The translations under genes were made by a program, and so were the position numbers. A model generated the notes under the pieces. The model worked only from the letters and a program-made list of their open reading frames with translations. It was not told the DNA's origin and did no database searches. Below, in pieces: positions 58,662 through 59,719 of a stretch of 64,000 nt of DNA (its first letter is position 1; every line of letters begins with the position of its first letter). This DNA comes from Escherichia coli (GTDB lineage: Bacteria > Pseudomonadota > Gammaproteobacteria > Enterobacterales > Enterobacteriaceae), in the NCBI RefSeq assembly GCF_013315695.1, contig NZ_CP054353.1; one strand, 5' to 3'.

Positions 58662-59440
58662 TCACCGTGCGGATCGCGTAGTGGACATTTCGCACAAGTC
58701 GAAAACCATATGAGAGCGTATGAAAATCACTCTCCTCGGCCCCATCGCCATCAGCATGGCCCGCTGAACAATACAATCCCGCAATGCAGGGCTCCCCAGT
58801 GGTCGCTGTTTGCTGTTGCTTTTAGGGATAGCAACATGTTCATGACCACCACGTTTATACCGGTGAGTCGGCTGCTGACAGCTGACCAACCCCAGCTCTT
58901 TCATGAGCCTGCCAGCAAACCAGCGTCCCATCTGGTAGCCTCTCCGGGTTGCCATTGTGGCGATGCTTCTTGCTCCGGCCGAACCGTGGCTGATGCCATG
59001 TAGCTCAAGTACCTGACTGTGTAATACAGCCCATCTGGTTTTTCAGGACGGTTTTTCCAGTATCTGTAGCTACTGCGATGAACCCTGAACACATGGCAGA
59101 GTGTGACCACCGGATAATGCGCTCTGAGTTTCCCGATTATCGGGAACTATTCAGGGAGTCTGATATCAAGAGCGCGGTAGCCTTTTTTAATATCGTATTT
59201 TGTTCCTCCAGACGACGCACCTGCTTTTCCAGCTCACGAATACGTTGCTGCTCTGATGTGAGTGGTACTGCAGAAGGCGTGATATCCTGACGTTCCCGTC
59301 TGAGCTGACATACCCATGCCTCCAGAGTAGAGAAACCAACATTCATAGCTTCAGTAGCTTCCCGGTATGAGTAACCTTTATCAACGATAAGTTGGGCGCA
59401 TTCCAGATTAAACTCAGGAGAGAAGGTACGCTTTGTTTTC
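58662..59440 (-). mobile_element. IS3-family (IS911-like) remnant with disrupted orfA/orfB
   Basis: orfA fragment ends ...[18 protein letters not shown] (IS911 OrfA-like); orfB fragments are frame-disrupted. Confidence 0.7.
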
Positions 59441-59719
59441 TTGTTGTTTTATGTTGTGGTGAGAATATCACCTTTAATCAGGTGGCCAAATTTACTGTGC
59501 CACTACAACGCGATGGAGGAGAGCATCAATGGTCTTTACAAAACGGAGGTAATACACCGTAAGAGCTGGAAAAACCGGACAGAAGTGAAACTGGCCACAC
59601 TAACGTGGGTGGACTGGTATAACAATCGACGATTACTGAAAAGGCTGGGCCATATTCCTCCGACAGAAACAGAAAAAGCTTATTATGCCTCCATCGGAAA
59701 CAATGATCTGGCAGCCTGA
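59441..59719 (+). mobile_element. Inverted IS3-family transposase C-terminal fragment
   Basis: 92 aa fragment ...WVDWYNNRRLLKRLGHIPPTETEKAYY, typical C-terminus of an IS3-family integrase-core transposase, on the opposite strand to the adjacent remnant. Confidence 0.65.

Follow-up and report, generated by a model that had tools for sequence, protein, structure and literature searches.

What an island of extraintestinal pathogenic Escherichia coli keeps of the mobile elements that once entered it, and how the remains came to be arranged as they are, is the question raised by a short composite in the chromosomal contig NZ_CP054353.1. The 64,000-nucleotide stretch analysed is called here the window, and positions given without a locus name refer to it. 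The original prediction, made from the letters alone, had described positions 58662-59719 as two head-to-head fragments of insertion sequences (IS) of the IS3 family, an IS911-like orfA/orfB remnant on the minus strand abutting the C-terminal part of another transposase on the plus strand at about 59440, and had attributed them to successive insertions and deletions which may have removed cargo genes. The composite was found to extend further on both sides, from 58615 to 59761, and consists of four pieces of mobile-element debris. It is very probably a non-functional scar of nested, decayed mobile elements lying in a pheV-linked pathogenicity island of uropathogenic E. coli. At least three mobile elements contributed to it: an IS of the IS629/IS1203 type (element B), a mosaic IS of the ISEc31/IS911 type (element A) and a group II intron resembling E.c.I4. 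At least three deletions, in addition to a 13-bp deletion of a start site, are readable from the junctions and from sister alleles; the successive insertions and deletions proposed initially were borne out in this respect. The blastn references were IS and intron copies taken from other genomes. The features of the composite, from left to right, are the following.

58615-58829, minus strand: fragment of a group II intron ltrA gene, frameshifted (blastn, tblastn, and the RefSeq pseudogene calls in strains A24 and 582).
58822-58829, motif on the minus strand: deletion junction with the 8-bp microhomology ATCCCTAA (comparison of the window, IS911 and the intron-carrying IS of reference locus L009).
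58822-59193, minus strand: IS911-type segment of element A (blastn, sliding windows, translations).
59182-59188, minus strand: slippery heptamer A AAA AAG, the -1 frameshift motif of IS3-family elements (read from the sequence).
59194-59507, minus strand: ISEc31-type segment of element A, with the left inverted repeat and orfA (blastn, OrfA comparison, sliding windows).
59330-59452, minus strand: match to Rfam RF01387 (isrC) in the 5' region of orfA (covariance-model score).
59505-59508, no strand: junction between the tip of element A and an internal break of element B, with the 4-bp overlap ACAA (blastn, allele comparison).
59508-59761, plus strand: element B, the terminal 254 bp of a 1310-bp IS629/IS1203-type element (blastn, Pfam, tip comparison).

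Positions 59505-59761 aligned by blastn with the last 257 bp of an intact 1310-bp IS629/IS1203-type copy (L010 1798-2054) at 94.9% identity (E 6.6e-116). The 254 bp of element B were 93-95% identical to the IS629/IS1203/IS3411 cluster, which belongs to the IS51 group of the IS3 family. The last 70 codons of orfB are retained down to the stop codon at 59717-59719 (OrfB residues 248-317, 91% identity), and this plus-strand open reading frame (ORF) matched the Pfam domains rve_3 and rve_2. The right inverted repeat is intact, its tip ...CCGGGATGGTTCA ending at 59761 with the GGTTCA of the cluster. About 19% of the element is left; unlike the members of the cluster, the remnant has no left end, no catalytic domain and no ALIL pseudoknot region. 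The model of this pseudoknot, RF01497, matched the reference copy and gave no match in the window scan.

The plus-strand piece showed no blastn similarity to IS911, ISEc52 or ISEc31, and the minus-strand piece showed none to the IS629-type reference; they are therefore the remains of two elements and not of one rearranged IS. The presence of two different IS3-family remnants in divergent orientation was indeed well beyond chance, with E values of 3.9e-175 and 1e-93 for the two parts of the minus-strand remnant and 6.6e-116 for the plus-strand one. They meet at 59507/59508. Read on the plus strand, element A finishes at 59507 with its tip CCACTACA; the bases just past it, ACGCGATGGAGGAG, are already part of orfB of element B; the four bases ACAA at 59505-59508 are common to both sides. 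The place where the junction had first been set corresponds to position 59441, the TTG start of a spurious 92-amino-acid (aa) ORF which runs from the leader of element A across the true junction. The adjacency of elements A and B was present in 57 of 5426 genomes. In strains SCU-101, A24 and UPEC 26-1, element B is longer by 170 bp where it meets this same tip, so that the arrangement in the window is a derived deletion with the 4-bp overlap ACAA.

Element A resembled different relatives in its two parts. Positions 58822-59193 were 95.3% identical to IS911 (E 3.9e-175) and positions 58822-59201 were 90.7% identical to ISEc52, while positions 59138-59509 were 78.6% identical to ISEc31 (E 1e-93). 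The best match to the ISEc31-type segment listed outside the island alleles was a plasmid copy with 85.6% identity. In sliding windows from 59507 to about 59200, the identity to ISEc31 was 97% in the tip window (first 60 bp) and 63-86% thereafter, that to the plasmid copy was 73-95%, and that to IS911 was 50-62% between about 59200 and 59477, rising to 80% in the tip window of the left inverted repeat alone. From about 59190 to 58822 the relation was reversed, with 95-100% identity to IS911 and 33-62% to ISEc31. The switch fell in the frameshift window, in which identity among all these elements is 80-88%. The proteins followed the same partition: OrfA was 82% identical to that of ISEc31 and 53% to that of IS911, and the first 52 residues of OrfB were 92% identical to those of IS911. 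We read element A as a mosaic whose left part is of the ISEc31 type and whose right part is of the IS911 type. The two parts meet in the conserved frameshift window, where different members of the IS3 family would be expected to recombine through their homology. Element A is neither a copy nor an isoform of IS911, and the description of an IS911-like orfA/orfB remnant held for orfB and failed for orfA. With ISEc31 it shares the left inverted repeat, which is intact, reads TGTAGTGGCACAGTAAATTTGGCCACCTG and is nearly identical to that of ISEc31, and the tip TGTAGTGG at 59507; it differs from ISEc31 in its DNA (79% overall), in the arrest of the similarity at the frameshift window and in the 13-bp deletion described below. 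With IS911 and ISEc52 it shares the segment 58822-59193 (95% and 91%, respectively), including the frameshift window with its A AAA AAG motif and the N-terminus of OrfB. Only 372 of 1250 bp are of the IS911 type, and the DDE domain and right end of IS911 are missing.

None of the coding capacity of element A is intact. Both reading frames, that of orfA and the -1 frame of orfB, can be recognised, and both are disrupted. A 13-bp deletion (AGGTGACTTAATG) near 59440-59450 on the minus strand takes away the Shine-Dalgarno sequence and the ATG of orfA. It is shared by the four aligned island alleles (the window, SCU-101, KC-Dl-1 and UPEC 26-1), so that the inactivation of orfA is older than their divergence. 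In the IS911-type segment, orfA ends, the frameshift window follows and orfB is present for its first 140 or so codons; the segment is damaged by a 7-bp deletion, a frameshift and stop codons. orfB breaks off near codon 140, short of the first catalytic D of the DDE region, and the DDE domain of element A is lost by deletion; in the Pfam scan the minus-strand ORFs gave no rve match, and the orfA piece gave a weak HTH_Tnp_1 match. The repeat search provided no inverted partner for a right inverted repeat of element A and, for a second inverted repeat or target duplications, returned short matches at chance level only. A 9-bp core of the tip (TGTGCCACT) recurs in direct orientation just after the stop codon of the FxLYD-domain gene to the left of the composite (58484-58499 versus 59489-59504), probably by chance given its length.

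An intact element A was sought elsewhere in E. coli genomes and plasmids. Among the best 40 matches, on which the conclusions of this search rest, all those with at least 97% identity were annotated as transposase pseudogenes, and the four such loci inspected (UPEC 26-1, FEX669, KC-Dl-1 and SCU-101) were alleles of this same island remnant. In CFT073 a full-length IS3-family element lies beside pgtP, separated by about 30-70 bp from the position in the pgtP flank at which element A ends in other strains; it was rejected as an intact element A, being unrelated and without blastn similarity.

The leftmost 215 bp, 58615-58829 on the minus strand, belong to neither IS. They were 85.4% identical (E 7.7e-68) to the ltrA gene of a group II intron (WP_001189123.1, L009 4371-4588), and cover about 73 codons, approximately codons 86-158 of the 502-aa protein, with a frameshift. 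In strains A24 and 582, RefSeq annotates the same bases as a pseudogene of a group II intron reverse transcriptase (RT). The fragment retains neither intron end and no ribozyme domain; its ORF had no Pfam match at E<=0.01, and the ribozyme model RF00029 gave no match in window 57500-61000 at E<=1, while it was present in the reference loci L009, L013 and L003. In L009 the intron is 2270 bp long (3445-5714), begins with GTGTG, carries RF00029 at its 3' end and sits in an orfB of the ISEc52/IS911 type at IS nucleotide 762/763. In strain B1.H1.18 (L017), the same intron (99.5% identity) lies at the corresponding conserved site, there within an IS629-type element. E.c.I4 is known to insert at specific positions in IS629, IS911, ISEc16 and ISEc31, and fragments of it were found in large mobile elements, one of them in K-12 (PMC3522654). 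The K-12 ykfC/IS911 remnant matched the same two pieces of the window, the RT fragment and the IS911-type segment. The fragment in the window, 85% identical to the intron found in the ISEc52/IS911-type and IS629-type orfB genes, is a diverged relative and not E.c.I4 itself, and the assignment of the reference intron to E.c.I4 was inferred from its targets.

At the right end of this fragment the IS911-type sequence ...CATGTTGCTATCCCTAA runs straight on as ltrA ...AAGCAACAGCAAACAG, and the 8 bp ATCCCTAA were found at both parental positions, in the IS911-type orfB and in ltrA. The junction at 58822-58829 implies a deletion of about 991 bp between the 8-bp repeats, equivalent to L009 3380-4370, which would have removed 65 bp from the IS and, from the intron, its initial 926 or so nucleotides. 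A 5'-truncated retrohoming product was also considered and rejected, because the IS breaks off 65 bp upstream of the homing site of the intron and because of the 8-bp microhomology. The junction between intron and IS911-type segment was present in 27 of the 5426 genomes.

On its left, the intron fragment borders at 58615 on the island backbone, and the composite is flanked on both sides by intact genes.

58142-58489, plus strand: FxLYD-domain gene, intact, island backbone (ORF list; RefSeq WP_001049880.1).
58490-58614, no strand: backbone spacer, common up to 58599 to about 80 genomes with ISEc12 on the right.
58600-58614, no strand: last backbone bases ahead of the intron fragment (allele comparison).
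60042-60758, minus strand: gene of a 238-aa membrane protein of the STM1630 family, intact, backbone (ORF list, RefSeq annotation).

The 80 or so other genomes, strain 83972 among them, share the FxLYD gene and the spacer to 58599 and then carry a truncated ISEc12 (IS21 family) joined directly to the region upstream of papX. In this ISEc12 allele (L019 5501-6722), window 58600-60966 is replaced, the FxLYD gene comes almost directly before papX and the STM1630-family gene is absent. All examined alleles which keep the boundary (the window type, SCU-101, KC-Dl-1, A24, strain 582 and WP7) share the break at 58614/58615, so that the content lost at this point is not recoverable. The loss includes at least what remained of the intron, together with the right-hand portion of element A and the left-hand portion of element B.

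The sister alleles showed how variable the interval is, the first 430 or so bp of element A being kept in most of them. They differ from the window as follows.

SCU-101, A24 and UPEC 26-1: the 170 bp more of element B mentioned above, against the same tip of element A.
SCU-101: about 1 kb gone, from 6 bp inside the tip of element B through the STM1630-family gene.
UPEC 26-1 and FEX669: about 1.03 kb gone (58044-59074) with a 9-bp overlap, taking the FxLYD gene, the spacer, the intron fragment and the orfB piece of element A.
KC-Dl-1 and FEX669: the pgtP flank flush on the tip of element A, with a solo copy of the 8-bp tip ahead (TGTAGTGG T TGTAGTGGCAC).
A24: about 1.09 kb (L003 3431-4520) in place of 58830-59405, with a transposase fragment and the 3' half of another group II intron, at most distantly related to the one in the window (26% identity to ltrA in aa) and carrying RF00029 at L003 4189-4266.
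Strain 582: a newer insertion, of IS21, at 58812-58816.
KE40, WP7 and others: an intact 1310-bp IS629-type element, likewise newer, at 58934-58936.
B1.H1.18: the same IS629-type element, itself invaded by an E.c.I4-like intron at the conserved transposase site (L017 232-3715).

We propose the following history for the composite. Element B, of the IS629/IS1203 type, would have entered the backbone first, its right tip at 59761 being the surviving original insertion junction. Element A would then have arrived in the opposite orientation, with its left tip within orfB of element B, at about nucleotide 886 of the latter. An E.c.I4-like intron, of a type whose conserved homing site lies in transposase genes of the IS3 family, would have settled in orfB of element A. 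A deletion between the two ATCCCTAA copies would have taken about 65 bp of element A and the first 926 or so nucleotides of the intron; a larger one, leaving the break at 58614/58615, would have eliminated the remaining intron along with the right portion of element A, the left portion of element B and a stretch of backbone. The 13-bp deletion would have removed the ribosome-binding site and start codon of orfA, and finally, in the lineage of the window only, a further 170 bp of element B was lost flush with the tip of element A. We infer the order of events between the arrival of element A and the 13-bp deletion, as well as the arrival of A by insertion into B rather than by another rearrangement. 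The composite cannot transpose, because it holds no intact transposase or RT gene and one end only for each IS. Its present effect is passive: it offers homology and a tolerated landing pad for more IS insertions and deletions.

Several points weigh against this history. The site and the length of the intron in element A are assumed, as the fragment is 85% identical to the reference intron. The right end of element A and the left end of element B were kept in none of the examined genomes at this locus; without these ends no target-site duplication can be looked for, and the insertion of A into B is unproven. In A24 the break falls within 2 bp of the ATCCCTAA junction with unrelated DNA beyond, which a simple linear history does not explain. 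The mosaic structure of element A could be that of a natural IS lineage rather than of a recombinant; the search for an intact copy covered the best 40 matches, and one may stand lower down.

The way in which the deletions occurred admits another explanation. It is conceivable, though we consider it the less likely course, that the A|B junction and the other sequences flush with the tip of element A were produced by deletions anchored at this tip, driven by transposase or promoted by the IS-excision enhancer, rather than by slippage at microhomologies. Three different sequences abut the same tip CCACTACA: element B at about nucleotide 886 (SCU-101, A24, UPEC 26-1), element B at about nucleotide 1057 (the window) and the pgtP flank (KC-Dl-1, FEX669). 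One end fixed at an IS terminus is the classic signature of IS-mediated adjacent deletions, and the IS-excision enhancer is reported to promote such deletions for IS3-family elements. However, the ACAA overlap serves slippage equally well, element A has no second end, and the start of orfA was already lost in the four aligned alleles, so that a transposase from another copy would be needed. The duplicated 8-bp tip beside the pgtP flank (L004 5100-5146 and L012 3480-3500) is predicted by neither model; it could result from an insertion next to a target resembling an inverted repeat, or be a leftover second end.

A second explanation would give the remnant a function. The covariance model RF01387 of IsrC, a small RNA of Salmonella islands described as an RNA of about 288 nucleotides overlapping the 3' end of msgA (PMC2330248), matched positions 59330-59452 on the minus strand over model positions 1-123 with 97.4 bits, above the gathering score of 39. 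The 5' remnant of element A might then have been kept as an IsrC-like small RNA gene, driven by a weak promoter in the left inverted repeat, which we regard as quite improbable. The full match to the model, the loss of the Shine-Dalgarno sequence and ATG, which would render the transcript non-coding, and the retention of the first 430 or so bp of element A in most alleles are in its favour. However, the same model scored 150 bits on an intact, coding ISEc31 (L008 1569-1691), and the match here therefore reflects IS homology and not a signal specific to a small RNA. The sole effect shown for IsrC, mutual degradation with the msgA mRNA, was observed with msgA, its partner overlapping at the 3' end, expressed in cis, and no msgA is annotated in this part of the island. 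The promoter and terminator scan returned as many sites as expected from shuffled sequences and none in the left inverted repeat. Identity among alleles in this region was 97-100%, no higher than in the flanking backbone, and most of the matched stretch is lost in A24. A related proposal, that the ISEc31-type 5' remnant (approximately 59330-59507, minus strand), devoid of ribosome-binding site and start codon and still holding the promoter region of the left end, is expressed as an IsrC-like, Hfq-binding non-coding RNA, deserves little credence; if true, RF01387 would be a family of IS-derived riboregulators and not a small RNA specific to Salmonella islands. RF01387 had no match on IS911 or ISEc52, and its match here confirms the ISEc31 ancestry of the left part of element A. 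From the same match the family appears to be, in large part, a model of the leader and 5' region of an IS orfA. Because isrC scores higher on the intact ISEc31 than on this remnant, many of its matches among enterobacteria may correspond to copies or remnants of IS, a remark based on the few loci scanned.

That the region consists of just two elements head-to-head, an IS911-like orfA/orfB remnant and the C-terminal fragment of a second IS3-family member, is scarcely tenable. Both remnants exist and are divergent, and part of the minus-strand one is 95% identical to IS911. Against this picture, the leftmost 215 bp are an intron RT fragment, orfA and the left inverted repeat are of the ISEc31 type (50-62% to IS911, and 80% in the tip window), and the junction lies 67 bp from the place proposed for it; blastn, sliding windows and protein comparison ruled it out as a complete description. 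That both fragments stem from one rearranged IS, for instance through an internal inversion, has virtually no chance of being right, since nothing but membership of the IS3 family links them, the plus fragment being 93-95% identical to the IS629/IS1203 type with no alignment between either fragment and the references of the other, and the tips differing (TGTAGTGG versus TGAACC); aligned to IS references, the fragments do not form one contiguous rearranged IS.

The suggested removal of cargo genes applies to other lineages, in which the FxLYD or the STM1630-family gene was lost through deletions ending in the composite. For the lineage of the window such a loss at 58614/58615 is neither shown nor excluded; what is demonstrably missing relative to the closest alleles is IS or intron sequence only (the 170 bp of element B and about 991 bp of IS and intron).

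Positions 58400-60100 were 100% identical to E. coli MS 21-1 (NZ_CP146670.1), and the same stretch was complete in 11 more complete genomes with at least 99.1% identity. From the annotation of MS 21-1, the composite lies about 10 kb into a pheV-type island, at the papX end of the pap operon. The gene order there is core genome (speA to yqgA), tRNA-Phe, tyrosine integrase, island module, composite, papX, an IS3 pseudogene and papG; the composite is located between the integrase-proximal module and the papX end, with the FxLYD-domain gene and the 238-aa STM1630-family gene as its immediate neighbours. RefSeq annotates in MS 21-1 a frameshifted and incomplete "transposase" pseudogene at window 58788-59471 (minus strand) and an "integrase core domain-containing protein" pseudogene without N-terminus at window 59507-59719 (plus strand). 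The IS3-family pseudogene between papX and papG, at window 61969-63068 (minus strand), has a programmed frameshift and an internal stop and is unrelated to the composite. Further to the left, at window 52600-56700 approximately, an intact ISEc22 of the IS66 family (tnpA, tnpB and transposase genes) interrupts a phosphoethanolamine transferase gene belonging to the island.

All components of the composite belong to types that are well described. RefSeq already contains this exact sequence, annotated with pseudogenes, and fragments of group II introns targeting IS3 elements have been catalogued in E. coli mobile elements (PMC3522654). The value of the present analysis lies in the correct annotation of four kinds of debris, none of them functional, with breakpoints at 58614/58615, 58822-58829, 59507/59508 and 59761. 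The locus exemplifies the interval from the FxLYD gene to papX in pheV/pheU-type islands as a tolerated landing pad for IS3, IS21 and group II intron insertions, and shows an island remodelled by small deletions at microhomologies, some of which remove neighbouring genes in sister strains.

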